32,140 nucleotides of DNA, taken from positions 1-32,140 of the forward strand of contig JACQFG010000310.1 of assembly GCA_016200155.1 (NCBI GenBank), in the 5' to 3' direction. Below are positions 6,266-27,043 of this stretch, one piece after another. This DNA is from Planctomycetota bacterium (GTDB lineage Bacteria; Planctomycetota; Planctomycetia; Gemmatales; Gemmataceae). The stretch's first letter is position 1, and each line of letters opens with the position of its first letter. The notes under the pieces are model-generated. The model saw only the letters and a program-made list of their open reading frames with translations. It searched no databases and had not been told where the DNA came from. A program made the translations under genes and the position numbers.

Positions 6266-6301
6266 CAGGGTCGCAACCCGGGCCGCTCGCTGGAAACGTG
6301 G

Positions 6302-7486
6302 TCACTCGATCGAACCTTGGACGACATTGGCGATTCGGCGCAGCAGAAAGCCGCGGTCCTGGCGCCACGGTTGCGTGGTGAGAACCACACACAGCAATTC
6401 GCGCTGTGGGTCGGCCCAGGCAACGGTACCGCTGGCGCCGCTGTGGCCGAAGGTTCGTTCGGACGACAGGTCGCCAAAAGCATTCCACGCCGTGGACGTC
6501 TGCAATCCCCAACCCAATCCCCACGGATGGCCGAGGCTCTTGTTCCGGTCCGTTGTCATCGCCTCCACCGTGGCGCTCCCCAGAATGCGGTTGCCGTCGT
6601 AAACCCCTCCGTTGAGAAACATTTGCAGCACGATGCCGAGATCATCGGCCGTGCTATGGTTACCGCCCCAGGGATGGCCGAGCTTCCGCAGGTAGCCGCT
6701 GTTCGCTCCGTAGCGTTCAAGGTCTTTCTCGGTCTGGGCGAAGGAATCGCCCTGTACGCGGGCGGTATCCGCCAGGGCTCGCTTGCCCAGGCCCAGAGTG
6801 CTGTTCTTCATCTTCAACGGCTCGAAGAGTTCACGCTGTTCAAACTCGGCCAACGGCATTTTCGTGACCCGTTCCACGATCTCCGCTGCCAAAAGAGTGC
6901 CCATGCTGGAATACTTGAACGAGGTGCGCGGCTCAAACAACAGCGGCGTGGTCATGGCGCCTTTGACGAAGTCGCCCAGCGGCGCGTTCGCTTCGCGGAG
7001 CTTGATATTCTCGGGGAGCATGTCCGGCAAACCCGCGGTGTGCGTCAGCAAGTCCTGCACGCGCACTTTTTCCCGGCCCGGTCCCTTGAACTCGGGCAGG
7101 TACTTTTGCACGGGGTCGGCGAGCGAAATCTGGCCCCGCTCCACCAGGAGCATCAGCATGAGGACGGTAATCGGCTTGGAGATCGACGCCAGGATGTACA
7201 CGGTCTCCGGCCCGGCCTTGGCGCTGGCAGCATCCGGGGCGAGCGTGCCCCAGCCGCCGCGCAAGACAATGACGCCGCGCCGCGCCACCAGAACCGAGGC
7301 GGCCGTCACGCGCCCGCTCTTGGTTTCGTCCGTCAGGATCTGGTTCACGATTTCCAGGCGGCGCCCCGACATGCCCACTTGCTCGGGCTTGCCGGCTTTC
7401 AGCACGCGATCCTCGGCCCGGCTCGAACCTGCAAGGAACGTGACGGACAGGGTCAGGGTGATGACCAGAATGGAGATGGCGCGCAT
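6302..7486 (-). CDS. Serine hydrolase, beta-lactamase (class C/PBP-like) family
   Basis: Start at 7486 gives the signal peptide MRAISILVITLTLSVTFLAGSS. Motifs seen: SxxK (ASISKPIT), a YxN-like motif (KYSSMG) and a KTG-like motif (FGHSGASGT). The track ORF extension to 8023 crosses an intergenic hairpin. Confidence 0.8.
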   Translation of the reverse strand: MRAISILVITLTLSVTFLAGSSRAEDRVLKAGKPEQVGMSGRRLEIVNQILTDETKSGRVTAASVLVARRGVIVLRGGWGTLAPDAASAKAGPETVYILASISKPITVLMLMLLVERGQISLADPVQKYLPEFKGPGREKVRVQDLLTHTAGLPDMLPENIKLREANAPLGDFVKGAMTTPLLFEPRTSFKYSSMGTLLAAEIVERVTKMPLAEFEQRELFEPLKMKNSTLGLGKRALADTARVQGDSFAQTEKDLERYGANSGYLRKLGHPWGGNHSTADDLGIVLQMFLNGGVYDGNRILGSATVEAMTTDRNKSLGHPWGLGWGLQTSTAWNAFGDLSSERTFGHSGASGTVAWADPQRELLCVVLTTQPWRQDRGFLLRRIANVVQGSIE

Positions 7487-7618
7487 GTGAATTTCCTTGA
7501 AGGTGAGCTGCCCGGCCGGAGGATTCCTTTGCGGGCTTGACGTTGATCGCAGTGCCGAATTCCTGTCCGTTATATTGAATAGGATTGAGAGCACGACTTC
7601 GTGGTTCTGTGTTACGCT

Positions 7619-7728
7619 GGCTTTGCTACGAAACTCGTGGCGGCAAGACTCTGACCTTGCCGTTTGCTTGATTTTCACGGCAAGATCGGAGTCTTGCCGC
7701 CACAAAAACAGCGTTTCGTAGCAAAGCC
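7619..7728. repeat. 110-nt nested imperfect palindrome (three stacked stems) in a divergent intergenic region; MITE/REP-like
   Basis: GGCTTTGCTACGAAAC (7619..7634) pairs with GTTTCGTAGCAAAGCC (7713..7728). GTGGCGGCAAGACTC (7637..7651) pairs with GAGTCTTGCCGCCAC (7689..7703). CTTGCCG (7656..7662) pairs with CGGCAAG (7679..7685). The element is flanked by direct GTGTTAC at 7609..7615 and 7729..7735. Confidence 0.85.
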
Positions 7729-7819
7729 GTGTTACCTTGGAGAAGGGCAACCTCCCGACCGGGGTCCTCGACAATCCGTTTTGTGAACGGCTCGCCATTG
7801 TAATCGAAAGGACATCATC

Positions 7820-9124
7820 ATGCGTTTCCATCACGCCGCGTCCTTGCTGGTTGTGATCGCCGCCGCCGCCTTCTTGCCCGCTGGCGAGACCACGAAGCGG
7901 GTCACGGTCAATGACGGCGATCGCAACATCTATGTTCCCGTGGGCGACAAGAAGCAAGCGCCGCCCGCTCCCAAAGAGTTCGCGTTCGTGCTGTCGGACG
8001 GCTACGGCGAAGCGGATCGTCATTCGAGCGATCCCAAGGTCTTCGAGAATCTGCTGATCAACATGAGGAAGTCAGGATTCAACACGCTCCATTGCGTCTA
8101 CCGTGACTGGCGCGTGGAGTTGTGCCGCAAGCACAAGGTAAAGATGATGATCGATGTGCTCGCGTGGAAGGAGGGGGCCGAAATGGACATTCGCAAGCCA
8201 GAGCAACGCGCCGCCGTCAAGAAGATCTGCGAGGCGGTGCGCGGCAACGACGCCGTCTGGGGGTACAACCTCTGGAACGAGACGCTCTCATTCTTCGGCA
8301 ATCCCGACGGCAAGAACATCGATGCCTACTGCGAGATGCTCAAGGAGTGGGACCCGACCCATCCCATCTGGATCGGCACGCGCACGGTCTCCTACGCCAA
8401 TGCCCTCAAAAGTAAACCCGGCGTGCACGGATACTATGACTACCCCTGGCAGCGCGGCTTCAATTACCACTTCGCCGATCTGATGTGGTACTACAAGCAC
8501 GTCCCCAGCCAGGACGGCTTCATCGGCCGATGGGAGCAAGGGAGCAACTACAACTGGAATTCCTTTTCGCTGAATACGTCCATCGCGTTCGGCACCAAGG
8601 TCAACATCTGGTTCATCGGCGGCCCCTTCGACAAGGAGGGGAACGTCGACCCGAAGCACCGGTTCCATCACCTCGTGAAGATCGGCCAGGAAACGCAGAA
8701 GCTCTATCCGGAACTCGGCAAGTTCGGTCGGCCCACCGATGTGTTCTCGACGCCGACAACCAGGACGCACGACAACAAGGAGCGCGACAAGACCAAGGAC
8801 AAGAGCGGCCCCGTGCCGTGGAACTTGCCCGCGTTTCCCAAGGATTTCTGGTTCGAGGTCCGCACCGGCGAGGCGCTCGCAGGCTTCTTCCGCTATGAGA
8901 ACGGTGACGACGCCATTTTCATCGCCAACCACAATGCGTTCGCCAAACAGGACATGACCGTGGCGCTGGCGCCGTCGGCCGGCGCGAAGGCGCGAATCGA
9001 GATCTTCAGCCGTGAAACCGGCGTCTGGCGTGACCTCGTCCCTCGCGAGGGCATCTTTGCGTTCGAGGTGCGTCCGGGCGGCGGCGAACTCCTTCGCGTT
9101 CAAGGCCGGGCACGGGAAAAATGA
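7820..9124 (+). CDS. Secreted hypothetical protein, possibly a clan GH-A (TIM-barrel) glycoside hydrolase
   Basis: 434 aa with the signal-like N-terminus MRFHHAASLLVVIAAAAFL. The segment GFNTLHCVY...VKMMIDV...VWGYNLWNE resembles the beta4 NE(P) catalytic-acid region of GH5/GH42-like enzymes. The functional call is weak. Confidence 0.6.
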   Translation: MRFHHAASLLVVIAAAAFLPAGETTKRVTVNDGDRNIYVPVGDKKQAPPAPKEFAFVLSDGYGEADRHSSDPKVFENLLINMRKSGFNTLHCVYRDWRVELCRKHKVKMMIDVLAWKEGAEMDIRKPEQRAAVKKICEAVRGNDAVWGYNLWNETLSFFGNPDGKNIDAYCEMLKEWDPTHPIWIGTRTVSYANALKSKPGVHGYYDYPWQRGFNYHFADLMWYYKHVPSQDGFIGRWEQGSNYNWNSFSLNTSIAFGTKVNIWFIGGPFDKEGNVDPKHRFHHLVKIGQETQKLYPELGKFGRPTDVFSTPTTRTHDNKERDKTKDKSGPVPWNLPAFPKDFWFEVRTGEALAGFFRYENGDDAIFIANHNAFAKQDMTVALAPSAGAKARIEIFSRETGVWRDLVPREGIFAFEVRPGGGELLRVQGRAREK

Positions 9125-9609: not shown

Positions 9610-9665
9610 GTAGAACGGAATTTATTCCGTTCGGGGCAGCGAGAACGGAATGAATTCCGTTCTAC
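9610..9665 (+). promoter_or_regulatory. Two tandem 20-22-bp palindromes (GAACGGAAT-N2-ATTCCGTTC), centres 30 bp apart; candidate operator pair or alternative hairpins
   Basis: GAACGGAAT TT ATTCCGTTC lies at 9613..9632 and AGAACGGAAT GA ATTCCGTTCT at 9642..9663. The outer GTAGAACGGAAT (9610..) can also pair with ATTCCGTTCTAC (..9665). The element ends 81 nt upstream of the ATG at 9746. Confidence 0.5.
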
Positions 9666-9745
9666 AACCTGGGCAGTCGAAGCAAACTGAGACATTACCT
9701 GGCCCTGCCTTTTTTTCCGGAACGACGCTCCAGGAGTACGCAACC

Positions 9746-12700
9746 ATGGAACAACTTGGTTCTCGCAAATCGCTCGTCGCAATGGCGCTTTTTTCCATTG
9801 GCTTCAGCGCGCTCGCGCCGTTGGTTGTGATTCCAGCAGGGGAGCGGAAGGGGCGTCCGGCGGATGACGTCAAGACCGAGGCGATCGTGCGCCAACGCTA
9901 CGCCATGGACCCGCCCCATCACTCCAAGGATCCGGCCGTCAAGATCGACTACGACATTGTCTACGTACGCGCGCCGCGCAATGCGTTCGTTTATCCCGAC
10001 GTCGGCACACCCACGCTCGTGGAACCCGGCGCCGATTTGATGCTGCTGCATCCCGATGGCAGTGAGGAGCTACTGGTCGAAGGCGGCAAACGCGGTTCGG
10101 TCGCCGATCCGTTCGTATCCTTTGACGGCAAGTCGGTTTACTATGCCTTCTTCTACGCCAATCACGGCGCCGACATCTACAAGATCCACGTACCGACGCG
10201 GAAAATCGTCCGTCTGACACACGACGGCGGTCAACCAGCGCCCGGAACACGCGGAGCGAACTACGCGGTGCACCAGGATTCGCAGGTCCATCTAATGACC
10301 ATGATGGGGCATCATCCGTCGGTGCGCGACGTCATCTACAACACCGGCCCCTGTCCCGTGCCAGGCAGCAAGGTGGTCTTCACAAGCAATCGCCATGGCT
10401 TCGTGCCGCGCATCGGCAGCTTCAGCTCGCATGCATTTCAGCTGACCGCAATGGACGATGACGGCCGCAACGTGGAAACGATCGGGCACTTGAATCTCGG
10501 TTGCGCGCTTCATCCGGTCATTCTGAAGGATGGCCGAATCATGTTCAGCTCGCTGGAGAACCAGGGAGTGCGCAGCACGCTGCACTGGTCGCTGTGGACC
10601 ATCCGTCCGGACGGCTCGCACTGGGACCCGCTGGTGAGCGATTTCGGCTGGGGCCTGCCGTCGTCGTTCCACTTCCAGACGCAGCGCAGCGATGGCCGCG
10701 TCGTGGCGGAGTTCTATTACAACGTCAACCAGGCGGGCTTTGGGACCTACGCTCAGTTTCCTGTCGCCGCGCCGAAGGGGACGCCGTTCTTCGGTCCGGG
10801 CGATCCCGATTCGCCGCGCAATCAGCCGTTGCGCATGCTTGCCGGAGGTGTCAAGGCGTTCCAGCTTCCGTTCAGTCCACACGGACTGGACATGCTGACG
10901 CCGTTCGCAAACGATGACGACAACCCGAGCACGCGTTCGGATCCGAAAGACCCGAAGTCGCCGAAGGTCGGCCGGGTGACGCATCCGTGCGGTGCACCGG
11001 ACAACCACGTGCTGACGGTGTGGGCGCCCGATCTCGATGTGAGCCGTGACGGCATCACCGGCGGCGTGCGGCGCGTGGCGAGCGACACCGGCATCTACCT
11101 GATCAAGGCCGGCGCGCCGGTCTATGAACCCGGCCAGATGCTGCTGATCAAGAACGATCCGAAATATCACGAGCAATGGCCGCGCCCGCTCGTGCCCTAC
11201 AAGCGTATTCACGGCATCGACGAGCCACAACGCTTGCCGCTGGTCGTCAACGACGGCAAACAGTCGCCGTACTTGCCCGAGGGAACGCCGTACGGTCTGA
11301 TCGGAACCTCCAGCCTGTACAAGCGCGAAAGCGCCACGGCGGGTAGTGTGCCGGACGGTAGCGTGACTGCCGTCACGCCAGCCAAGCGCGGACGGTACGG
11401 AAACAATCTGCGCGGCTGGGTTGACCAGGGCGCTGACGCCGGCATCTATGAGAACAGTGAAATCCACGCCATCCGGATCGTTTTGCAAGAGCCGAACGTT
11501 CGCGAAGATCAATGGCGTTTCTTCAGCCACGCTCATGAACGGATGCGCATCCTTGGCGAAATCCCCGTGCGCCATTTTGATCGTAGACCTCACGCTCCGC
11601 GTGAGGAAAAGCATCACGCGGAGCGTGATGCCTACGGTGGCCAACCGTTCGATCCCGACGGCAATCCGGACACCAGCTTCCTGGCAAAGATCCCCGCCGA
11701 TCATTCGTTCACGTTCCAAACGCTGGATAAGCATGGCCTCGTGCTCAATATGTCGCAGACGTGGCACCAGGTCCGTCCGGGCGAGGTTCGCAACGATTGC
11801 GGCGGTTGCCACGCCCACAGCCAGAAGCCGACCCTCTTTGAGCACACGGCGGCCGCCAAGTCGGACTACAAGATTTTCGATCTGACCAAGTCGACCCCGC
11901 TCATCACAGCCAAGGGGCACGACCAGTCGGGCAAGCAATGGGATGTCAAGGACGAGACGGGGCTGCGTTTTGAAAAGAATGTCAAGGACGTCGAATACTG
12001 GCGCGACGTGCGTCCCATCCTGCAGCGAAGTTGTGCCGCCTGCCACACCAAGACCGCGAAAGAACCGGCGGGCGGCCTGGTGCTCGACGACGACGAGAAG
12101 ATAGCCAGTGACGGTTATCGACAGCCGCGCGGCGTGCCGCGCACCTACCAAGAGCTGGCGCTCAACCCGCGTTACGTGAAAGAGCTGCAAGCGCGTTCGA
12201 GCATGTTGACCTGGCGCCTGTTCGGTCGAAGAATGGACGGCCATCCCGACGCGGCGCCGTTTACCACGAGCGGCAAGACGCCCGCCAAGCCGTTGAAGCT
12301 GACGCCCATGCCGCCACCCGAAGCAGTCGCGGGCACTTACGTCGGACCGGACAGCAAGAAAATCAAGGTTGCAGCGCTCTCCGACGAGGACCGCCGCACG
12401 CTGATCCGCTGGATCGACCTGGGCTGCTCGATCGACCTGCGTTTCGATCCGCAGCGCCCTGATCCGCGCACCAGTCCCTTCGCGGATCGAACGTTGCCGA
12501 CTTTGACCGTCGCCCTTCCGCGCGCCGGCGCCAACGGGGAACCGTTGACGCGCATCGTCGTCGGCATGGCGGACGCGGCCAGCGGGTTGGACATGTCCAG
12601 CTTCAGCGTGATTGCCGACTTCGACATCGACGGCCAGTCGGCGGGGCGTGAACTGGCATCCTACTTTCGGCCAACCTCGCCCGGCGTCTGGGAAATGCGC

Positions 12701-12805
12701 TTGAAATCGCCGCTGGCTGAGTTGGCGGGCGGCAAGCTAACGATTCAGGTCGCCGATCACGATCGCAATGTCGCGCGCATCGAAAGGACTTTTTCTATCA
12801 AATAA
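9746..12805 (+). CDS. Large secreted TolB/PD40-like beta-propeller protein with two C-terminal c-type haem motifs; possibly HzsA-related family
   Basis: ATG at 9746 follows AGGAG with a 9-nt spacer and gives the signal peptide MEQLGSRKSLVAMALFSIGFSALAPLVV. PD40-like segments include DPFVSFDGKSVYYAF and FSSLENQG. CGGCH lies at 11798..11812 and CAACH at 12032..12046. The track start at 9650 lies inside the palindrome. Confidence 0.8.
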   Translation: MEQLGSRKSLVAMALFSIGFSALAPLVVIPAGERKGRPADDVKTEAIVRQRYAMDPPHHSKDPAVKIDYDIVYVRAPRNAFVYPDVGTPTLVEPGADLMLLHPDGSEELLVEGGKRGSVADPFVSFDGKSVYYAFFYANHGADIYKIHVPTRKIVRLTHDGGQPAPGTRGANYAVHQDSQVHLMTMMGHHPSVRDVIYNTGPCPVPGSKVVFTSNRHGFVPRIGSFSSHAFQLTAMDDDGRNVETIGHLNLGCALHPVILKDGRIMFSSLENQGVRSTLHWSLWTIRPDGSHWDPLVSDFGWGLPSSFHFQTQRSDGRVVAEFYYNVNQAGFGTYAQFPVAAPKGTPFFGPGDPDSPRNQPLRMLAGGVKAFQLPFSPHGLDMLTPFANDDDNPSTRSDPKDPKSPKVGRVTHPCGAPDNHVLTVWAPDLDVSRDGITGGVRRVASDTGIYLIKAGAPVYEPGQMLLIKNDPKYHEQWPRPLVPYKRIHGIDEPQRLPLVVNDGKQSPYLPEGTPYGLIGTSSLYKRESATAGSVPDGSVTAVTPAKRGRYGNNLRGWVDQGADAGIYENSEIHAIRIVLQEPNVREDQWRFFSHAHERMRILGEIPVRHFDRRPHAPREEKHHAERDAYGGQPFDPDGNPDTSFLAKIPADHSFTFQTLDKHGLVLNMSQTWHQVRPGEVRNDCGGCHAHSQKPTLFEHTAAAKSDYKIFDLTKSTPLITAKGHDQSGKQWDVKDETGLRFEKNVKDVEYWRDVRPILQRSCAACHTKTAKEPAGGLVLDDDEKIASDGYRQPRGVPRTYQELALNPRYVKELQARSSMLTWRLFGRRMDGHPDAAPFTTSGKTPAKPLKLTPMPPPEAVAGTYVGPDSKKIKVAALSDEDRRTLIRWIDLGCSIDLRFDPQRPDPRTSPFADRTLPTLTVALPRAGANGEPLTRIVVGMADAASGLDMSSFSVIADFDIDGQSAGRELASYFRPTSPGVWEMRLKSPLAELAGGKLTIQVADHDRNVARIERTFSIK

Positions 12806-17191: not shown

Positions 17192-17351
17192 GGTTGAACC
17201 TCCACCCATTTCGGCCCGCATTTATTCTACCGCATGAGCGGAGACAACGGGGCCTGGCAGTTTTCCACGCGCCGACACACCGCTGCAACCGGAAAAAGTG
17301 TTAGGAGGGTCCTGACGCCTTTTTCCCCTTCCGCAGCAAAAACGAGCTTTC

Positions 17352-17759
17352 TTAGCCCTGAAACTGCTGGCAACTCGAATGCTTTTCTCGCCCAAACAAC
17401 CGGCCAAAGAACCCGATTCCGGCCCCGCACATGATGCACACGTTTTTCGACCGCCGTTCATTGATTATATATTGCTTTCTTTCTTCCTCTGCACGCCGCC
17501 GCGGTTCTTCTTCCTGGCGTTTCTTTGCCTCCTCTTCCCGATATTTTGCGGTTTCAACTTGCATTCGGGATAGCTCATCTTGCCACTTTTTCTCCTCGGC
17601 TTTAATTACATCGACGGCCTTCTTGATGGCAGAGCATCCGTTGCACTCTTTCTGCGCGATGACGTTTTCAACGTTCGTTATGAGTTTATCGAATTCTGAT
17701 TTGAAATTTGGAAATCGCGGAGCGTGACCACGCAGAGGATCTCCAAAACGCCAATTCAT
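17352..17759 (-). CDS. Hypothetical 135-aa protein: Glu/Lys/Arg-rich coiled coil plus C-terminal CxxC-GFFGRL half zinc ribbon
   Basis: The ORF lies in an AT-richer segment (about 40-50% GC). Its codon usage is coherent with the neighbouring 419-aa gene. No family was recognised. Confidence 0.6.
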   Translation of the reverse strand: MNWRFGDPLRGHAPRFPNFKSEFDKLITNVENVIAQKECNGCSAIKKAVDVIKAEEKKWQDELSRMQVETAKYREEEAKKRQEEEPRRRAEEERKQYIINERRSKNVCIMCGAGIGFFGRLFGREKHSSCQQFQG

Positions 17760-17801
17760 GGCGAAGAGACGTGCGATTGAACCGGGAACATCGTAATAAA
17801 G

Positions 17802-17891
17802 TTAAAGTAGTTGTCCCAATGTTTCACTATCAATTGACTGGACCGATATTATTTGAAGGAGGATTTCCGAAGCTTTACGATAATCACGCAT
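17802..17891 (-). CDS. 29-codon micro-ORF (MRDYRKASEILLQIISVQSIDSETLGQLL)
   Basis: AAGGAGG (17898..17904) overlaps the TAA of the upstream 419-aa gene and lies 6 nt before the ATG at 17891. It fills the gap between two co-directional genes. It is too short for the ORF track. Confidence 0.35.
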   Translation of the reverse strand: MRDYRKASEILLQIISVQSIDSETLGQLL

Positions 17892-17902
17892 GGTCAACCT
17901 CC

Positions 17903-19162
17903 TTACAACATCCCGTAGAGCATTTCAATCTGACGTTTAGCTTGCAGTATGGCTGGTTTACCGCCACTCAGTTGCAGAGCTTTGTCAAGACAGTCCAATC
18001 CGGATTTCACCTTCGGTTTATTCATCCCGATCTGCCCGAGCTGTGAGAGGCACATCCCCTTGAAATACCATGCCAAGTGGTTCCCACCATCCAGTTCAAT
18101 TGCCTTGTCAAAGTACGTCAGAGACTTTTCCGCGTTTTGCTGAGGGGCGATGCCCGGTATTTGCTTGCGCCATACCGATTCATCCATCTGATACAGTGCT
18201 AATCCGCAGGTAAGCCAGCCGGACGCTTCGCCAGGCAGGGCCTTGACCGTGATAAGGGAGCATTTGAAACTCTCTTCATATCGCCCGGCATCGGCAAGGT
18301 CTCCAGCGGCCTTGGCAAGGTTGTCCCAACCGTATTTCTTGACTAGGGCCGTTTCTTCATCAGACAGATCGACTTGCTGTTTCTGTTTCGGGGTAACACC
18401 TGGTTGCGGGTCCGCAGTCTCGTATGACGGAAATGAGGCCCGCGCGGGAGGCGCCGCCCTCGGGTTAGTTTGGGGAGCTACCGGTTGGGCTGTTGTCTGG
18501 TTCTGGGTCGCAAGTTTTTCGGGAAGATCGGTGGACGACGTTGCCGGCGTTGCAATGCTCATGAGCATTTGGACGGCCTGGCGAATGGGATTCGGAAGAG
18601 CAAGGAGTTCTGCTTCTGACATCCCCGGTCCGAGATGTTCTCTTAACCCCATGAACTGAATCATGATCTCCGTGGCAGCCTTTCCTTGACGCAGAAGTTC
18701 AACGCCACCGACGGGTTCGGGAGGCCTATTGAGCAGAAAGAATCCAGACCATGCACTACGGAGCATCATTCCGGCATACCACTTGAACAGATCATAGGTT
18801 TCCGGTGTATCATCGACCAACTTCACCGTCAACCGCTCGGGAGTGGGAAACCACCATGTGAGGATGAACGAGATGTTGGTCCGAATGGCATCGATTAGCT
18901 CGATGGCAAGTTGGTTGCCCGCTTTCCGATAGTACTCGGTGGCAAACGTACAGACCGCTGAGAGGTCGGCAATCTTCTGGTCCCGGTAAGAGGAATCCAT
19001 GAGTCGATCGTTGTCAAGACCACCACGTTCGACTAAGACCTGCCAGCATGCCGGACAGTACCAATATTTGGATGCCGTTCCCCGAACCTTCACCCAGGAC
19101 CATAGCCGGGCAAAAAAGCCAGCTTTTGCGTGGCATTGAGTACAGGTCGCTGAGAGGAACAT
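17903..19162 (-). CDS. Hypothetical 419-aa protein: N-terminal zinc ribbon (CTQC...CPAC), unknown central domain, Pro/Gln/Thr-rich linker, C-terminal TPR repeats
   Basis: GGAG lies 8 nt upstream of the ATG. The TPR-like segments are AGRYEESFKCSLITVKALP, AEKSLTYFDKAIELDGGNHLAWYFKGMCLSQLGQ and GLDCLDKALQL. The gene lies in the AT-richer segment. Confidence 0.7.
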   Translation of the reverse strand: MFLSATCTQCHAKAGFFARLWSWVKVRGTASKYWYCPACWQVLVERGGLDNDRLMDSSYRDQKIADLSAVCTFATEYYRKAGNQLAIELIDAIRTNISFILTWWFPTPERLTVKLVDDTPETYDLFKWYAGMMLRSAWSGFFLLNRPPEPVGGVELLRQGKAATEIMIQFMGLREHLGPGMSEAELLALPNPIRQAVQMLMSIATPATSSTDLPEKLATQNQTTAQPVAPQTNPRAAPPARASFPSYETADPQPGVTPKQKQQVDLSDEETALVKKYGWDNLAKAAGDLADAGRYEESFKCSLITVKALPGEASGWLTCGLALYQMDESVWRKQIPGIAPQQNAEKSLTYFDKAIELDGGNHLAWYFKGMCLSQLGQIGMNKPKVKSGLDCLDKALQLSGGKPAILQAKRQIEMLYGML

Positions 19163-19238
19163 GAAATGTACTCCAAAACCGCCTCACACCTTCAGTTTTT
19201 GGCTCGATACAGTTGATTGGTTTTCATGAACTTTCCAA

Positions 19239-23667: not shown

Positions 23668-24846
23668 CTAAACACTCGGCTTTCCGGTGAGTCGCACGTA
23701 ATATCCCTCACCCAACGTCGACTTCCCTTTGGGCCGTCTCCTGCTCATCATGGGCTTCGGTGTGCTCTTGTCTTTGTCGAGCACTTCAATCTCGCCACTC
23801 GCCTCCAGGTGAAGCAGAGCCTGTTTGTACGCAGATTGGCTTAGCAAATCAGTCGGGCGCACGACCCAGTCATTGAAAAATAGGTCTACGCATCGAGGAC
23901 CCGTCACAAGCGCGTTGAGAATTTCTCTTTTCACATCAAAGTGAGGATCGAAGAGTGCGACATAATCCGTCCGCCCGGCTTGGACGAACTGCAAAGCGCC
24001 CTCACCTTCTTCCGAGTGACCGCGTTTCCACATGATGTCCTTCATGATCTTGAAGCCAAGCTTGTGATTGGTCGCGTGAATCAGATAGTGACTGGTCTTC
24101 TGCTTTTCTTCGGATTCGACCCGGAATGGGATTGAAAATTCAACGCGCATATCTTTGCGCAACGCGAGCCGATAACACTCCAAGATCAGTAGTTCTCGTT
24201 TATCAGCCTCGTCCGTTGTCTGCAAGGCACTGAAAAGTTCTTCCGCCCGCTGCCTTGAGCCGAGCAGTTCCACTAACACGTCGCTGAGCTTGTCCAACCC
24301 GGCGATTCTGCGCACGCCGTCGATGTTGAAGAAAATAAACGCTTCAGACGATTTGCACGCCATCACGGCTTTGATGGTTTCGAAGGACGTGCCCGAGACT
24401 CCACACGGATCAACGAACAAGAACGTAGGCGGTAGATTGCCGTTGGATTGTTTCAACAGCTTTTTCACTCCGTCGGCGAAAGTGCAGCAGTCGGTGTTTG
24501 GCTGGCGGATATGTGGGTTGGCCTTCCCGAAATCCACGACGGCTTTCTGCAGGGGCAGATACAGAATTGGATCGACCTCGATGAAAACTGCCGAGACCTT
24601 CTTGGAGAAGGTGTCGTTGGAAGCGATAAGCTTGAGCGCCCGAAGAGGAGAGCCGTCGAAAACCTCTCCCGTGTCGGCTTTCGTATATGTTCCGCGCCCA
24701 GCAAAGCCATCAACGTACTGAAGGTCCTTATTCGCCGTCCCGACAATCCGAAAATATGGCGTAAGGTAGGTAGCGAGAATCTCGTGTTTGACCTGCGTCT
24801 GCGCGCGGTAGTCGTCAAAGTGTTCTCGGTCGTTGTCTCTCCCCAT
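23668..24846 (-). CDS. tcmP: Three-Cys-motif partner protein TcmP-like (TIGR04474-type), methyltransferase-fold-like motifs
   Basis: The N-terminus (...TQVKHEILATYLTPYFRIVG...YVDGFAGRGTY) is typical of TcmP. FAGRG (motif I-like) lies about 100 aa before FVDPCG (motif IV-like). The RBS GAGGAA overlaps the stop of the upstream DUF5131 gene. About 47% GC. Confidence 0.6.
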   Translation of the reverse strand: MGRDNDREHFDDYRAQTQVKHEILATYLTPYFRIVGTANKDLQYVDGFAGRGTYTKADTGEVFDGSPLRALKLIASNDTFSKKVSAVFIEVDPILYLPLQKAVVDFGKANPHIRQPNTDCCTFADGVKKLLKQSNGNLPPTFLFVDPCGVSGTSFETIKAVMACKSSEAFIFFNIDGVRRIAGLDKLSDVLVELLGSRQRAEELFSALQTTDEADKRELLILECYRLALRKDMRVEFSIPFRVESEEKQKTSHYLIHATNHKLGFKIMKDIMWKRGHSEEGEGALQFVQAGRTDYVALFDPHFDVKREILNALVTGPRCVDLFFNDWVVRPTDLLSQSAYKQALLHLEASGEIEVLDKDKSTPKPMMSRRRPKGKSTLGEGYYVRLTGKPSV

Positions 24847-24853
24847 GGTTTCC

Positions 24854-25651
24854 TCATTTCACCGCCAACTGCGCGAAGTCGTCAATCAAGTTCAAGCGAA
24901 TTCGCTGCGAAGGCGCGGATGCACTCACTCGCTCAGGAAGGCCGTTATACGTTTGTCCCGCGAGCGTTCGCCCCGCCTGTTTCTTCCGCACGCCACCCCA
25001 TTGTTTGAAGAAGAACGGAATGCTGGCGGCGTGGCACTGGTCGCGAACGCTGAGTACCCATTCAGGTTGCATCGTGCGGGCGCCGGGACCGCTCTCCCCG
25101 CCGACAATGACCCAGTTGATTCCTTTAAGGTTCAATGTGCCGAGATCTTCCAGCAAAGGTTCGACTGAAAGAAAGCGAACAGTCGCCGGTGCACGCCGTA
25201 GATTTTCAATCCGTGGTAGACCGTGGCGTTGATTCTCGACACTCACCCCCCACCATATGTGCGGTAAGTTGGCGGCAAATCGAAGACTCCCTCGAAGTAG
25301 ATCCCGCAGTCGCACCGACCGCTTCGTCAAAACCTGAAACGTGTGCCAGGTTGCCAACTCCATGACGCGGGCAACGTCGCGAATGTAGTCGTCTGGCACG
25401 TCCTCATGGAAAAGGTCGCTCATGCTATTGACGAAAATCATGCGCGAGCTGGCCCAACGTAGAGGCTCGCGAAGTTTTTCGGGCACCAGGCGCAGGTCGA
25501 AGCCTTGCTCATAGGGGTGGCCGGGCACGCCGCGAAATCGTTCTGCAAAAGTTTCGGCATAGCAATGAGCGCATCCGGGGCTAATTTTGGTGCAACCGCG
25601 GACCGGATTCCAAGTCGCATCGGTCCATTCGATGGAGGAATGCTCGCTCAT
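24854..25651 (-). CDS. DUF5131 / phage Gp37-Gp68 family protein (PF07505-type) with three-Cys motif
   Basis: MSEHSSIEWTDATWNPVRGCTKISPGCAHCYAETFAERF is the canonical family N-terminus (IEWTD.TWNP..GC...S.GC..CYA). GGGAG lies 5 nt upstream of the ATG at 25651. Confidence 0.8.
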   Translation of the reverse strand: MSEHSSIEWTDATWNPVRGCTKISPGCAHCYAETFAERFRGVPGHPYEQGFDLRLVPEKLREPLRWASSRMIFVNSMSDLFHEDVPDDYIRDVARVMELATWHTFQVLTKRSVRLRDLLRGSLRFAANLPHIWWGVSVENQRHGLPRIENLRRAPATVRFLSVEPLLEDLGTLNLKGINWVIVGGESGPGARTMQPEWVLSVRDQCHAASIPFFFKQWGGVRKKQAGRTLAGQTYNGLPERVSASAPSQRIRLNLIDDFAQLAVK

Positions 25652-25667: not shown

Positions 25668-25687
25668 TAATGAACATGCGTTCATTA
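25668..25687. promoter_or_regulatory. Perfect 20-bp palindrome TAATGAAC-ATGC-GTTCATTA (GAAC-N4-GTTC core); candidate repressor operator, SOS-box-like
   Basis: Read directly from the sequence. It lies 17 nt upstream of the DUF5131 start codon and overlaps the TATAAT hexamer on the reverse strand. Confidence 0.5.
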
Positions 25688-25712
25688 TAGTAAGAAGCCC
25701 GGTATACTCCAA
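25684..25712 (-). promoter_or_regulatory. Sigma-70-like promoter candidate TTGGAG-17-TATAAT for the DUF5131-TcmP operon
   Basis: The reverse strand has TTGGAG (25712..25707), a 17-nt spacer and a perfect TATAAT (25689..25684). Confidence 0.4.
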
Positions 25713-25755: not shown

Positions 25756-26739
25756 TCACGCCGATGCCGCCTGCTCGCGCAACCTGCCATAATGCGCCGC
25801 GCAGCGGTCCCTCCAGGCTTGCTGTTCCGCTGGGCTGGCGTTGTTGCCGGGCCAGAGCAGCGGTTCGCGGTCGGGGAGCCAGTAGCGGAAGGGTGTGCTG
25901 CGGTAGCCGGTGCCGGAGCAGCAGATCAGTCCTTGCTGGGTGGCGCGTTTCAACCAGCGCAACAACGTCGAGCGGTCCGGCGCGCCTTCCTCGACGGGCC
26001 AGCGCTGCAACATGTCCTGCTGGGTCAGCTTCTCGGTGGCGTTGGCCAGGACCTCGTGCACCTCGGGCCAGGTCTGCACGACGGGGGTGCCGACGGCGTC
26101 GGTGCGCACCAGGTAGTCGGTCCCGTCGCCATTGAGTTCGATGATGAGGTGGCGCGGCGTTTCGACGTAGCGTGAGTAGGCGCAGATGCGGCGGCGCCGG
26201 TCGCGGCTGCGCAGGCGGCGACAGCAACTCATCTCCATGACGATGTCCGCGAAACCCGACAGGGCGCCGGAGCCGCGCGCGGTCTGGCCGTCGCCGCGTT
26301 TGTCCTTGGCGGGATGGTGCACGAGCCACACGGCGGGGCCAAGGTTCGCCAGAGCCTGGAGCGGCAGCAAGCAGTCGAGCAACTTCGGAGCGCAGGATTC
26401 GGCATAACCGGGGAGCAACGCGGCCAGAGCGTCGATCACCACCAGGTCCAGGGCTTCCTGGCGATGCAGTGCTTCCAGGCTGGCGATCAGGGAAAACCAT
26501 TGGGCGTCGGTTGGACGAGCGCCTTGGAAAGGGCGACACAGGAACTGGACGTTCTGCCCAAGGGCGAGTTGCCGGCAGCGTGCGGCCCAGTCGGATTCAG
26601 CTTCTTCGGAGACAACGATGGCCCGGCCTGGCGCAACTGCCAAGCCCGCCAGCTGTCCACCCTGGGCCAATCGGCCCAACAGGTGGGACGTGCAAGTGGC
26701 AGATGGAATCATTACGTCCATGCGCCTGGCGTAAATCAC
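25756..26739 (-). CDS. RepA/AAA_25-like RecA-fold ATPase remnant fused to a C-terminal winged-helix domain; Walker A apparently missing or degenerate
   Basis: Walker B-like DLVVIDALAALLPG and WLVHHPAKDKRG...ARGSGALSGFADIVMEM are typical of AAA_25. No GxxGxGK(S/T) motif is present; the expected position reads PSATCTSHLL. The start is GTG and the frame is closed by TGA 3 codons upstream. The C-terminus (STLLRWLKRATQQGLI) is wHTH-like. Confidence 0.55.
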   Translation of the reverse strand: MIYARRMDVMIPSATCTSHLLGRLAQGGQLAGLAVAPGRAIVVSEEAESDWAARCRQLALGQNVQFLCRPFQGARPTDAQWFSLIASLEALHRQEALDLVVIDALAALLPGYAESCAPKLLDCLLPLQALANLGPAVWLVHHPAKDKRGDGQTARGSGALSGFADIVMEMSCCRRLRSRDRRRRICAYSRYVETPRHLIIELNGDGTDYLVRTDAVGTPVVQTWPEVHEVLANATEKLTQQDMLQRWPVEEGAPDRSTLLRWLKRATQQGLICCSGTGYRSTPFRYWLPDREPLLWPGNNASPAEQQAWRDRCAAHYGRLREQAASA

Positions 26740-26856
26740 GTAACATCAGTGTTCGGGTCGCCATGCTACCCCAATGCGAAGCCAGCCATTGCAGAAGAAT
26801 TGCAGAAGTCCAAACACCTGTTTTCGTAACGTCTATTTGGATATGAAGTTACGAAG

Positions 26857-26927
26857 CTGGGGTACTAGGATTCGAACCTAGACAAACTGATCCAGAGTCA
26901 GTTGTGCTACCGTTACACTATACCCCA
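26857..26927 (-). tRNA. tRNA-Gln (anticodon CUG)
   Basis: Manual cloverleaf. Acceptor UGGGGUA/UACCCCA. D stem GUGU/GCAC with a GG loop. Anticodon stem ACUGA/UCAGU with loop CU-CUG-GA. T stem CUAGG/CCUAG with loop UUCGAAU. Discriminator G. CCA is not encoded. Confidence 0.9.
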
Positions 26928-26983: not shown

Positions 26984-27019
26984 GAAAAACCCAGGCAGGC
27001 TGCTTCAGCCTACCTGGGT
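26984..27019 (-). terminator. Rho-independent terminator downstream of the DUF1501 gene
   Basis: On the reverse strand, ACCCAGGUAGGCUG-AAG-CAGCCUGCCUGGGU forms a 14-bp stem with one G-U pair. It is followed by UUUUUCUCGUUU and begins 25 nt after the stop at 27044. Confidence 0.7.
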
Positions 27020-27043
27020 TTCGCCCCCGACTCCTGAAAATTC

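Follow-up and report, generated by a model that had tools for sequence, protein, structure and literature searches.

The stretch of DNA analysed here (the window), 32,140 nt from a Planctomycetota bacterium, carries two adjacent genes on its minus strand. The first is a DUF5131 (Gp37/Gp68) gene at positions 24854–25651 that encodes 265 amino acids and matches PF07505. It is followed by a TcmP gene at positions 23668–24846 that encodes 392 amino acids and matches TIGR04474. The open reading frames and both profile matches agree with an earlier note on this DNA, which had identified the pair from the sequence alone. Both proteins are full length when compared to their nearest homologues, and the pair represents an intact example of a two-gene mobile module that is widespread. 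The junction between the genes, which lie on the same strand with a gap of 7 nt, is AAA-TGA-GGAAACC-ATG. Direct reading of the sequence revealed a Shine-Dalgarno-like GAGGAA on the minus strand (24850–24855) that overlaps the DUF5131 stop codon (TGA, 24856–24854) and precedes the TcmP ATG (24846). This sequence arrangement, also described in the earlier note, indicates that TcmP is translationally coupled to DUF5131. The closest relative locus (L041) has an identical 7-nt junction.

A weak putative promoter on the minus strand (25684–25712) was recognized by eye upstream of DUF5131. It consists of TTGGAG (25712–25707) and TATAAT (25689–25684) separated by a 17-nt spacer. A consensus promoter scan made no call; the scanner missed this element because its −35 sequence agrees at only 3 of 6 positions. 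GGGAG (25661–25657) is situated downstream of the putative promoter, 5 nt ahead of the DUF5131 ATG.

The GC content of the gene pair is 54.7%, compared to 60.0% for the window, placing the pair within the lowest 5.6% of segments of equal size. Third-position GC (GC3) is also lower in the pair (0.62–0.65) than in the adjoining genes (0.72–0.88). Single 60-nt lines vary from 40% to 68% GC. The AT-richer islet described in the earlier note is real but modest.

Two additional features provide context outside of the module. A 5’-truncated remnant of an AAA_25 ATPase gene is present on the minus strand at positions 25756–26739 (PF13481, E = 2.9e-9, with the match starting at profile position 49). 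The remnant lacks Walker A, is preceded by upstream stop codons and has a native-like GC3 of 0.81. A tRNA-Gln(CTG) gene was identified with ARAGORN on the same strand at positions 26856–26927 (Rfam tRNA, 68.2 bits). On the 3’ side of tRNA-Gln lie both the ATPase remnant and the gene pair, as would be found in a decayed integrated element. A second copy of the tRNA-Gln 3’ end was not present in the window when up to 3 mismatches were allowed, nor was an att-like repeat; as the window contains no such direct repeat, no att sites that would mark the island boundaries could be defined. The AAA_25 gene was rejected as a third component of the module, as it is 5’-truncated, has native-like GC3 and is missing from L041. 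Nor does it resemble the AAA-ATPase located ahead of DUF5131 in mycobacteriophage Karhdo.

DUF5131 is a candidate radical-SAM-type enzyme

PF07505 matched the DUF5131 protein with a score of 330.9 bits (cutoff 28.9, E = 5.9e-99), such that residues 5–239 align with positions 2–243 of the 243-position profile. The Cys triad that had been noted previously as GC-x6-C-x2-CY was read as G19-C20-TKISPG-C27-AH-C30-Y31, and the C-x6-C-x2-C spacing is shared by 22 of 23 TcmP-adjacent homologues. Conservation is complete at C27, C30 and C206 and at least 90% at C20. This spacing differs from the CxxxCxxC motif of the radical SAM superfamily, which is absent from DUF5131; the variant is recognized in the family name. 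A match to PF04055 (Pfam Radical_SAM) was not obtained, and DUF5131 had no significant match to a solved radical SAM enzyme. The TIGR04471 model for ‘radical SAM mobile pair protein A’ did match (E = 8.4e-23), with a score below the family cutoff. Neither phmmer nor profile searches identified a relative of DUF5131 in the PDB.

The AF2 model of DUF5131 (pLDDT 83.8) contains short N-terminal strands, a Cys loop of low pLDDT, a helix and then six beta/alpha units, so that this highly conserved protein is predicted to form a beta/alpha barrel. All Foldseek matches to this model had E > 0.01, and most were generic TIM barrels; the best query TM-score, 0.46 for spore photoproduct lyase (SPL) structure 4fhg, was found amid generic TIM barrels in this same E range. 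Curation at RadicalSAM.org places DUF5131 as a subgroup of the radical SAM superfamily, in megacluster 5-2 beside SPL (PMC9477430). We propose that DUF5131 is a radical-SAM-type catalytic subunit. Its triad could instead bind zinc or a non-SAM cluster, the spacing being non-canonical.

TcmP has a predicted methyltransferase fold related to RlmJ

TIGR04474 matched residues 16–274 of TcmP with 174.3 bits (cutoff 53, E = 4.4e-51). The AF2 model (pLDDT 80.7, pTM 0.81) consists of N-terminal helices containing a putative motif X (K20-H21), an RlmJ-like class-I SAM methyltransferase fold (~41–276), a disordered linker (277–302), a C-terminal winged helix (~305–360) and a basic tail. With Foldseek, 97 PDB structures matched at E ≤ 1e-3, of which nearly all were SAM methyltransferases, and the matches from a viral structure library were methyltransferases as well. 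The top matches were Escherichia coli RlmJ, the 23S rRNA m6A2030 methyltransferase of the RlmJ/DUF519 family (E = 1.3e-6, target TM 0.53–0.57), and a DUF519 relative. TcmP is therefore predicted to have a class-I, Rossmann-type SAM methyltransferase fold that is closest to RlmJ. The earlier note had proposed structure prediction of TcmP as one test of its claim, and the predicted fold is of the SAM-binding, Rossmann type. None of the three outcomes that the note had listed as refuting its claim was observed.

Signature motifs of TcmP and RlmJ are collinear: D-x-x-A-G-x-G-x-Y, G-S-P-L, an acidic motif II residue (Glu) and the Asp of motif IV follow each other in the same order, preceded by a putative motif X K-H. 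Alignment of TcmP with RlmJ paired D46 with D40, G50 with G44, G52 with G46, F48 with H42 and E90 with E118. Among 105 TcmP relatives with 22–49% identity, the predicted SAM-binding positions are strongly conserved (D46 99%, G50 99%, G52 97%, F48 92%), and the acidic motif II residue E90 is E or D in 99%. RlmJ residues H42, S100, E118, D164, K18 and H19 participate in SAM contact or catalysis (PMC3814359), and their TcmP counterparts F48, S66, E90, D146 and, tentatively, K20 and H21 are 76–99% conserved. K20 is 92% conserved and present across all sampled branches; its match to RlmJ K18 comes from a low-confidence extended alignment.

The relationship to RlmJ was only apparent from structure comparison and edited hhalign. 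Searches of solved structures with TcmP by phmmer and hmmsearch were negative, and the Pfam RlmJ model matched none of 102 TcmP relatives at E ≤ 1. The hhalign probability was 8–14% against full-length RlmJ and increased to 75–81% (E ~1e-5; maximum shuffle score of 21) following an ad hoc edit that removed the RlmJ helical insert. This inserted helical subdomain is absent from TcmP. Two other elements accompany the RlmJ-like core of TcmP, namely a helical insert that follows strand 5 and the winged helix at the C-terminus. The winged helix is predicted to provide TcmP with a DNA-binding part. Pfam GMT-wHTH was matched in 71 of the 102 relatives; the meaning of ‘GMT’ in this name was not found in our literature search. 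The winged helix, linker and helical insert are the fastest-evolving parts of TcmP.

The motifs D46-GFAGRG-52 and F144-VDPCG-149 are separated by 98 residues, in good agreement with the distance of about 100 residues given in the earlier note, where they were likened to methyltransferase motifs I and IV. This interpretation holds in part. Motif I, the motif II acid and the motif IV Asp are conserved down to 22% identity, but the canonical (D/N)PP(Y/F/W) motif IV is absent from the TcmP family; only the Asp corresponding to catalytic RlmJ D164 is retained. In place of the DPPY of RlmJ, TcmP proteins carry D-[P/Q]-x-G, whose third residue varies; the window protein reads D146-P-C-G here. TcmP might therefore only bind SAM. 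A reading of FVDPCG as an m5C-type ‘PC’ motif fails because position 148 varies among relatives (Cys 52%, Phe 38%, Trp 7%), and other branches contain DPVG, DQYG or DQKG, i.e. Val, Tyr or Lys at this position.

The similarity to RlmJ raises the possibility, which we consider improbable, that the pair modifies RNA. TcmP would then target rRNA or tRNA as RlmJ does, with DUF5131 adding radical chemistry comparable to that of RlmN/Cfr or MiaB, so that translation would be tuned or stopped, e.g. in abortive infection. Many radical SAM enzymes that modify nucleic acids act on RNA, and the best structural matches of TcmP are an rRNA m6A methyltransferase and its DUF519 relative. RlmJ, the nearest structural relative, acts on rRNA and was inactive on single-stranded DNA (PMC3814359), which counts against DNA as the target. 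However, the RlmJ active site resembles those of DNA m6A methyltransferases according to the same paper (PMC3814359), and a winged helix with a basic tail is more typical of DNA binding. The patchy, mobile-element-borne distribution of the pair is also unlike that of a housekeeping RNA modifier, and one alternative partner of TcmP is of the SPL family, in which the member of solved structure has DNA as its substrate.

TcmP is consistently paired with a radical-SAM-type protein

We examined the neighbours of TcmP at 31 genome loci. DUF5131 was adjacent in 26 cases, confirming the recurrent pairing with a three-Cys protein described in the earlier note, and an SPL-family radical SAM enzyme was adjacent in 2. 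The remaining 3 loci were uninformative: one lies at a contig edge, one is a fragment and one has decayed. Thus, a radical-SAM-type gene adjoins TcmP in 28 of 28 informative genome loci, and TcmP–DUF5131 pairing is far beyond chance. TcmP differs in this respect from RlmJ, a stand-alone housekeeping enzyme. A survey of the 150 ORFs that flank 29 of these loci showed no recurrent third gene.

The position occupied by DUF5131 next to TcmP can be filled by SPL (PF20903) or PF04055 enzymes. A TcmP that is 74% identical to the window protein has a CxxxCxxC SPL-family enzyme as its partner (PF20903, E = 7.7e-17; PDB SPL, E = 1.7e-8), and on a haloarchaeal plasmid the gene preceding TcmP (profile E = 3.6e-106) encodes a canonical PF04055 radical SAM enzyme. 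An hhalign comparison of DUF5131 with the SPL-like partner gave a probability of 0.6%, and BLAST of DUF5131 against the haloarchaeal PF04055 partner was negative. Natural fusions also exist in two architectures, DUF5131–TcmP (P0088, P0114 and P0120) and TcmP–SPL/radical SAM (P0356). The exchange of partners and the existence of fusions suggest that the two proteins act in a single complex.

It is hard to credit that the two proteins have independent functions, with TcmP an orphan methyltransferase, DUF5131 an unrelated metalloenzyme and their adjacency a consequence of co-transfer or shared regulation. In its favour, DUF5131 was found in 181 phage records and TcmP in 10, so that DUF5131 often stands, and usually works, without TcmP, and phage annotators refer to TcmP simply as ‘methyltransferase’. 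On the other hand, the fusions in two architectures and the translational coupling argue against independence, as does the presence of a radical-SAM-type neighbour at every sampled intact TcmP despite changes in gene order and orientation.

The SPL-family partner might point to a role in DNA repair, in which TcmP would recognize a lesion and the radical enzyme would reverse it as spore photoproduct lyase does. In addition to this substitution for DUF5131, the placement of DUF5131 beside SPL in megacluster 5 at RadicalSAM.org (PMC9477430) and the many loci among housekeeping genes are consistent with repair. Yet alignment of the TcmP-associated SPL-like protein with Geobacillus SPL using HMMER placed Phe at Tyr98 and apparently Ala at Cys140. 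As Tyr98 and Cys140 are important for SPL chemistry, this partner lacks residues important in that reaction. Moreover, carriage on plasmids, prophages and transposon-rich DNA, together with multiple divergent copies per genome, fits poorly with repair, and the fast-evolving recognition domains suggest specificity for a sequence rather than a lesion. We consider a repair function very unlikely.

The pair is a catalogued module of mobile elements

The pair corresponds to the PADLOC candidate defence systems PDC-M30 and PDC-M41, which are unvalidated; adjacent genes matched both components. PDC-M30B and PDC-M41B matched DUF5131 with E ~1e-102, and TcmP was matched by PDC-M30A (E = 1.5e-22) and PDC-M41A (E = 2.9e-12). 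With HMM scores far over threshold, adjacent and coupled genes and the Cys triad, the window pair shows no difference in kind from the TIGR04474/PF07505 pair. It is itself the catalogued TcmP/three-Cys pair and thus belongs to an already catalogued, uncharacterized kind. The earlier note had called the pair uncharacterized. This is correct in that our literature search identified no paper giving the TcmP/DUF5131 pair a function, and found PDC-M30 named only in survey papers, with no experimental test of anti-phage activity; however, the pair was already present in PADLOC and in the RadicalSAM.org curation (PMC9477430). Ophion, a defence system that includes radical SAM (bioRxiv 2025.09.30.679545), was rejected as a match since its architecture is unrelated.

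At 50% identity the TcmP family falls into 5,222 clusters. DUF5131 is no less abundant, and both are distributed among bacteria, archaea, plasmids and phages. The pair resides on plasmids, in transposon-rich DNA, in prophage lysogeny cassettes and in small chromosomal islets. In Gordonia prophages it is found within the lysogeny cassette adjoining the immunity repressor. In Sinorhizobium meliloti it is listed next to hna, a defence gene that has been validated, as part of the same putative transcription unit (PMC12445080). One Acidobacteriota MAG contains two copies of the pair, and one Synechococcus locus contains two different pairs. Co-occurrence with defence genes, which the earlier note had suggested examining, was observed at some loci (TIR protein, R-M, AbiL, MADS and ThiF/MPN), but most chromosomal neighbours were housekeeping genes. 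No nuclease or restriction component recurred in the 150 flanking ORFs (29 loci), and none was present in the window. Searching IMG/VR viral contigs with A1 (closest subfamily) patterns yielded no confirmed relative, a result that is uninformative either way. Phage phiE125 gp38, considered as a diverged TcmP, was rejected because it had no profile match.

DUF5131 is very conserved and TcmP is diverging rapidly, a pattern that recalls HsdR and HsdS. By analogy, the pair could function in defence in a manner resembling restriction-modification. TcmP would methylate and recognize sites, and would recruit DUF5131, or a radical SAM enzyme in its stead, to damage unmarked invading DNA by hydrogen abstraction, much as HsdR is recruited by HsdM/S in Type I systems. 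We regard this mechanism as possible, though unlikely. The pair and Type I/IIG R-M systems have in common a subunit with a SAM-binding methyltransferase fold, fast-evolving recognition parts and a conserved, exchangeable second enzyme that is sometimes fused, as in Type IIG enzymes; both also share mobility and a partial location in defence islands. The PADLOC listing, the defence neighbours, the prophage lysogeny cassettes, the swapping of the effector-like subunit among three enzyme types while TcmP remains constant, and the Acidobacteriota and Synechococcus loci with two pairs all fit this scheme. In contrast to Type I/IIG systems, the pair has no nuclease domain or conserved third gene, and a Cys-triad barrel or radical SAM protein serves as its second enzyme. 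The absence of the canonical catalytic motif IV from TcmP and the predominance of housekeeping neighbours also count against it, and our literature search returned no phage-challenge data. To our knowledge, no radical SAM enzyme has been described as the effector of a restriction system.

DISCUSSION

As in the earlier note, we infer a nucleic-acid modification or defence role for the TcmP/DUF5131 pair, which probably modifies nucleic acid chemically in conflicts among bacteria, phages and plasmids. The explanation that we tentatively favour, and that may well prove to be correct, is that the two proteins are the subunits of one SAM-dependent enzyme, carried by mobile elements, whose substrate is nucleic acid (most likely DNA) and which serves phage–host–plasmid conflict. 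In this model TcmP would be the targeting subunit, recognizing a site via its winged helix and variable helical insert and offering a flipped-out nucleotide in its methyltransferase-like pocket. The Cys triad of DUF5131 would hold a [4Fe-4S] cluster and SAM would be cleaved reductively, with the resulting radical chemistry directed at the flipped nucleotide or at a group first installed by TcmP. The outcome would be a non-canonical nucleic-acid modification. The module would be self-contained, having no conserved third gene, and would move horizontally, marking or protecting the DNA of its carrier or excluding competitors.

It would be somewhat surprising, but is conceivable, that the pair represents a new type of immunity resembling R-M, in which a radical-SAM-type enzyme (DUF5131, SPL-family or PF04055, interchangeably) takes the place of the nuclease. 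TcmP would mark DNA in a SAM-dependent manner, recognize its sequence and recruit this enzyme to hypermodify DNA or to damage unmarked DNA. If true, no earlier defence or epigenetic system would have been based on direct radical chemistry on DNA.

The residue map provided by RlmJ can guide the design of point mutants, and temperate phages of Gordonia, which carry the genes in their lysogeny cassette, constitute a genetic system. If the reading of the pair as a two-subunit radical-SAM and methyltransferase-like enzyme is correct, mobile elements would modify DNA or RNA by a route that is new. The pair might also represent a new mechanism of immunity or anti-restriction, and base-modifying enzymes might be obtained from it.

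DUF5131 and TcmP form an intact two-gene pair in the window

Both minus-strand genes lie exactly where an earlier note had placed them: DUF5131 (265 aa; PF07505, 330.9 bits against a cutoff of 28.9) at 24854-25651, and TcmP (392 aa; NCBIfam TIGR04474, 174.3 bits against a cutoff of 53) at 23668-24846. The Cys triad of DUF5131 reads G19-C20-x6-C27-x2-C30-Y31, and TcmP contains D46-GFAGRG and F144-VDPCG. The intergenic gap is 7 nt, and the junction, AAA-TGA-GGAAACC-ATG, bears out the GAGGAA noted over the DUF5131 stop codon. A promoter-like site (TTGGAG-17-TATAAT), which was not called by the consensus scanner, and a GGGAG ribosome-binding site are present upstream of DUF5131. The AT-richer islet described earlier is real but modest: the pair has a GC content of 54.7% versus 60.0% for the window, falling within the lowest 5.6% of same-size windows, and a GC3 of 0.62-0.65 versus 0.72-0.88 in all neighbouring genes. 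These lower values fit horizontal acquisition, and we regard the pair as an intact copy that was probably acquired horizontally. Its closest named homologues come from Planctomycetota MAGs, which makes a planctomycete the probable host.

The ORF upstream of the pair (25756-26739) encodes an AAA_25 ATPase. Because it lacks Walker A, is preceded by stop codons just 5' and has a native-like GC3 (0.81), we identify it as a 5'-truncated remnant. This remnant lies directly 3' of tRNA-Gln(CTG) (26856-26927), an arrangement (25756-26927) resembling the decayed end of an integrated element. No integrase was found in this region, and no att-like repeat of the tRNA-Gln end anywhere in the window. A very strong terminator-like hairpin on the minus strand (26986-27022; 17-bp stem with 9 GC pairs, T-run) separates the tRNA-Gln and DUF1501 genes. 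The flanks also include genes for a SASA esterase, a GDSL lipase and an FGE-sulfatase-type protein. A 1051-aa ORF at 9650-12805, which matches the hydrazine-synthase-alpha middle domain (PF18582, E 1.1e-12), combines with the DUF1501 and FGE-sulfatase genes to lend the flanks a planctomycete flavour. The lowest GC of the window is found at 17300-19200 (~45% at 17501-18000; the lowest window of the pair's size, at 51.3%, begins near 17301), overlapping a 419-aa minus-strand ORF (17903-19162) with no Pfam match. This stretch may be another foreign insertion.

The pair is a portable unit

A scan of one genome per species identified 31 TcmP loci in Planctomycetota, Acidobacteriota, Cyanobacteria, Verrucomicrobiota, Myxococcota and Proteobacteria. 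DUF5131 adjoined TcmP in 26 of these, mostly upstream and at times downstream or convergent. Two loci contained a different partner, and three were uninformative (contig edge, fragment, decayed 5'-truncated copy). From these data we conclude that the pairing is real. The closest relative, locus L041 (TcmP 77% and DUF5131 79% identical), shares the 7-nt junction but has different flanks, in which AAA_25 is missing and a TIR-HAD protein is encoded downstream, indicating that the two genes constitute a portable unit. No recurrent third gene was found among 150 flanking ORFs from 29 loci.

The product of this next gene in L041 (2726-4996, same strand; 756 aa) combines a TIR domain at its N terminus with a C-terminal part that is HAD-type hydrolase/trehalose-phosphatase-like. 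One Synechococcus contig (L026) contains two different TcmP-DUF5131 pairs (1043-2916 and 6279-7966) ~3 kb apart, the first TcmP being just 25% identical to that of the window, and one Acidobacteriota MAG carries copies on two contigs (L008 and L034).

TcmP is predicted to resemble RlmJ and has counterparts of its SAM-contact residues

The AF2 model of TcmP (pLDDT 80.7, pTM 0.81) has a class-I methyltransferase core of the Rossmann type, which a disordered linker (277-302) joins to a winged helix at the C terminus. Foldseek returned 97 PDB matches at E <= 1e-3, headed by E. coli RlmJ (E 1.3e-6, target TM 0.53-0.57) and its DUF519 relative; a viral structure library yielded generic methyltransferases only. 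RlmJ, the closest structural match, is the 23S rRNA m6A2030 methyltransferase. We consider modification of RNA by the pair to be quite improbable. Sequence similarity to full-length RlmJ was faint (probability 8-14%), but rose to a probability of 75-81% (E ~1e-5, score 41-42, shuffle maximum 21) following an ad hoc, motif-guided removal of the inserted helical subdomain of RlmJ. In the resulting alignment, D-x-x-A-G-x-G-x-Y, G-S-P-L and the Glu of motif II were collinear.

Conservation was assessed in 105 relatives (22-49% identity), and TcmP keeps a counterpart of each residue to which a role was assigned in the RlmJ structure (PMC3814359). F48 (92% conserved) corresponds to H42, which stacks on the SAM adenine; S66 (87%) to S100 and D146 (99%) to D164, both of which bind the methionine moiety, the latter also being catalytic; E90 (E or D in 99%) to the ribose-binding E118; K20 (92%), tentatively, to the catalytic K18; and H21 (76%) to H19, which contacts the cofactor. 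Motif IV is variable beyond the Asp, being DPCG in the window and DPFG, DPVG, DQYG or DQKG elsewhere. As the SAM-contact counterparts are kept and the rest of motif IV is not, SAM binding is very likely, but it is uncertain whether TcmP transfers methyl groups. The earlier interpretation is supported in part: its methyltransferase-like fold and motif I are borne out, and the analogy to an m5C-like 'PC' motif IV was rejected, position 148 being Cys in just 52% of relatives. Of 102 relatives, 71 have a C-terminal domain that matched GMT-like wHTH of Pfam (best E 5.5e-19). Evolution is fastest in this domain, the linker and a helical insert of TcmP, as would be anticipated if they recognize the target.

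TcmP exchanges and fuses with radical SAM partners

The most informative result came from partner exchange and fusion. A TcmP 74% identical to that of the window has, in place of DUF5131, a 352-aa partner containing a canonical C-x3-C-x2-C. This partner matched Pfam SPL (spore photoproduct lyase) at E 7.7e-17 and crystal structures of the Geobacillus SPL at E 1.7e-8. The pairing was seen at two further genome loci. On a Halopiger plasmid, a PF04055 Radical_SAM gene with CRHGCKFC precedes a strong TcmP (profile E 3.6e-106). Two types of natural fusion were also found, DUF5131-linker-TcmP (P0088, P0114 and P0120; 683-685 aa) and TcmP-wHTH-linker-SPL/Radical_SAM (P0356; 713 aa). Partner exchange and fusion identify TcmP as a dedicated partner of radical-SAM-type enzymes, which implies an equivalent role for DUF5131. 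The fusions contradict independent functions for the two proteins, which we find scarcely credible.

The SPL-family replacements (L004 8934-9992, L007 and L033) have CAYCF after the cluster motif, with its Phe at the position of Geobacillus SPL Tyr98, and apparently Ala where Cys140 aligns. It is unlikely that they are genuine spore photoproduct lyases. SPL-like DNA repair, which the apparent lack of both equivalents weakens, is very unlikely.

Direct evidence that DUF5131 is of the radical SAM type is weaker than that from partner exchange. Such a role agrees with its curation at RadicalSAM.org, where it forms a radical SAM subgroup adjacent to SPL (PMC9477430), and with a below-threshold match to 'radical SAM mobile pair protein A'; other sequence and profile searches for a link to radical SAM enzymes were negative. 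In the AF2 model of DUF5131 (pLDDT 83.8), a beta/alpha barrel, the Cys loop lies between the N-terminal strands and the first helix. No PDB structure matched this model at E <= 0.001; by query TM-score SPL ranked first (0.46) in a set of generic TIM barrels. DUF5131 is much commoner than TcmP in phage records (181 versus 10), indicating that it is the more general enzyme and that TcmP serves only a subset. In TcmP-less mycobacteriophages, including Karhdo (L047 2623-4415), DUF5131 lies in the early/replication region, overlaps the upstream AAA-ATPase gene and has an HNH endonuclease gene nearby, suggesting that its partners differ in lytic-cycle contexts.

The pair occurs on mobile elements and is a catalogued defence candidate

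TcmP was found on 23 plasmids, including haloarchaeal ones. On S. meliloti pSymA (L042) it is accompanied by HD, AAA, exonuclease (3'-5'), radical SAM and ThiF genes, and in this species it is listed next to hna, a validated defence gene, within a single putative transcription unit (PMC12445080). In B. pseudomallei TcmP is surrounded by Tni, Mu-type and IS66 transposition genes, and a Mycolicibacterium plasmid has it close to ImmA/IrrE, PIN and MPN genes. Gordonia temperate phages carry a TcmP-like gene right after the immunity repressor, a few genes from the integrase, with a convergent DUF5131 (E ~1e-101). Prophage-expressed defence genes of actinobacteriophages are usually located at this position. 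Chromosomal copies are mostly found among housekeeping genes, with a minority adjoining R-M, SoFic, AbiL or MADS genes. Restriction-modification-like defence, in which the radical enzyme would be the effector arm, appears rather unlikely.

Two very distantly related plasmids (L042 pSymA and L043 Halopiger) carry ThiF-family adenylyltransferase genes within ~5 kb of TcmP, and a third (L045, M. chubuense) has an MPN/JAB-family gene near it. Both are typical components of ubiquitin-like conjugation defence systems.

The pair is less obscure than the earlier note had stated, as the PADLOC candidates PDC-M30 and PDC-M41 already correspond to DUF5131-TcmP; these names are cited in survey papers only. 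No functional study of the pair was found in the openly searchable literature. We conclude that the window contains a member of an already catalogued, functionally uncharacterised gene pair.

Proposed function of the pair

We tentatively favour a two-subunit SAM-dependent nucleic-acid-modifying enzyme. Alongside the folds, conserved SAM-contact residues, obligate pairing, exchangeable radical SAM partners, fusions and mobility, which were observed or predicted, we infer a mechanism in which TcmP would recognize a DNA site and present a flipped nucleotide. DUF5131 would hold a [4Fe-4S] cluster on its Cys triad and carry out radical chemistry on this nucleotide or on a group installed by TcmP, and the outcome would serve mobile-element conflict. 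Although the copy in the window is ordinary in itself, it belongs to a large family whose function can now be tested directly by means of the RlmJ residue map, the exchange of partners and the Gordonia phages.
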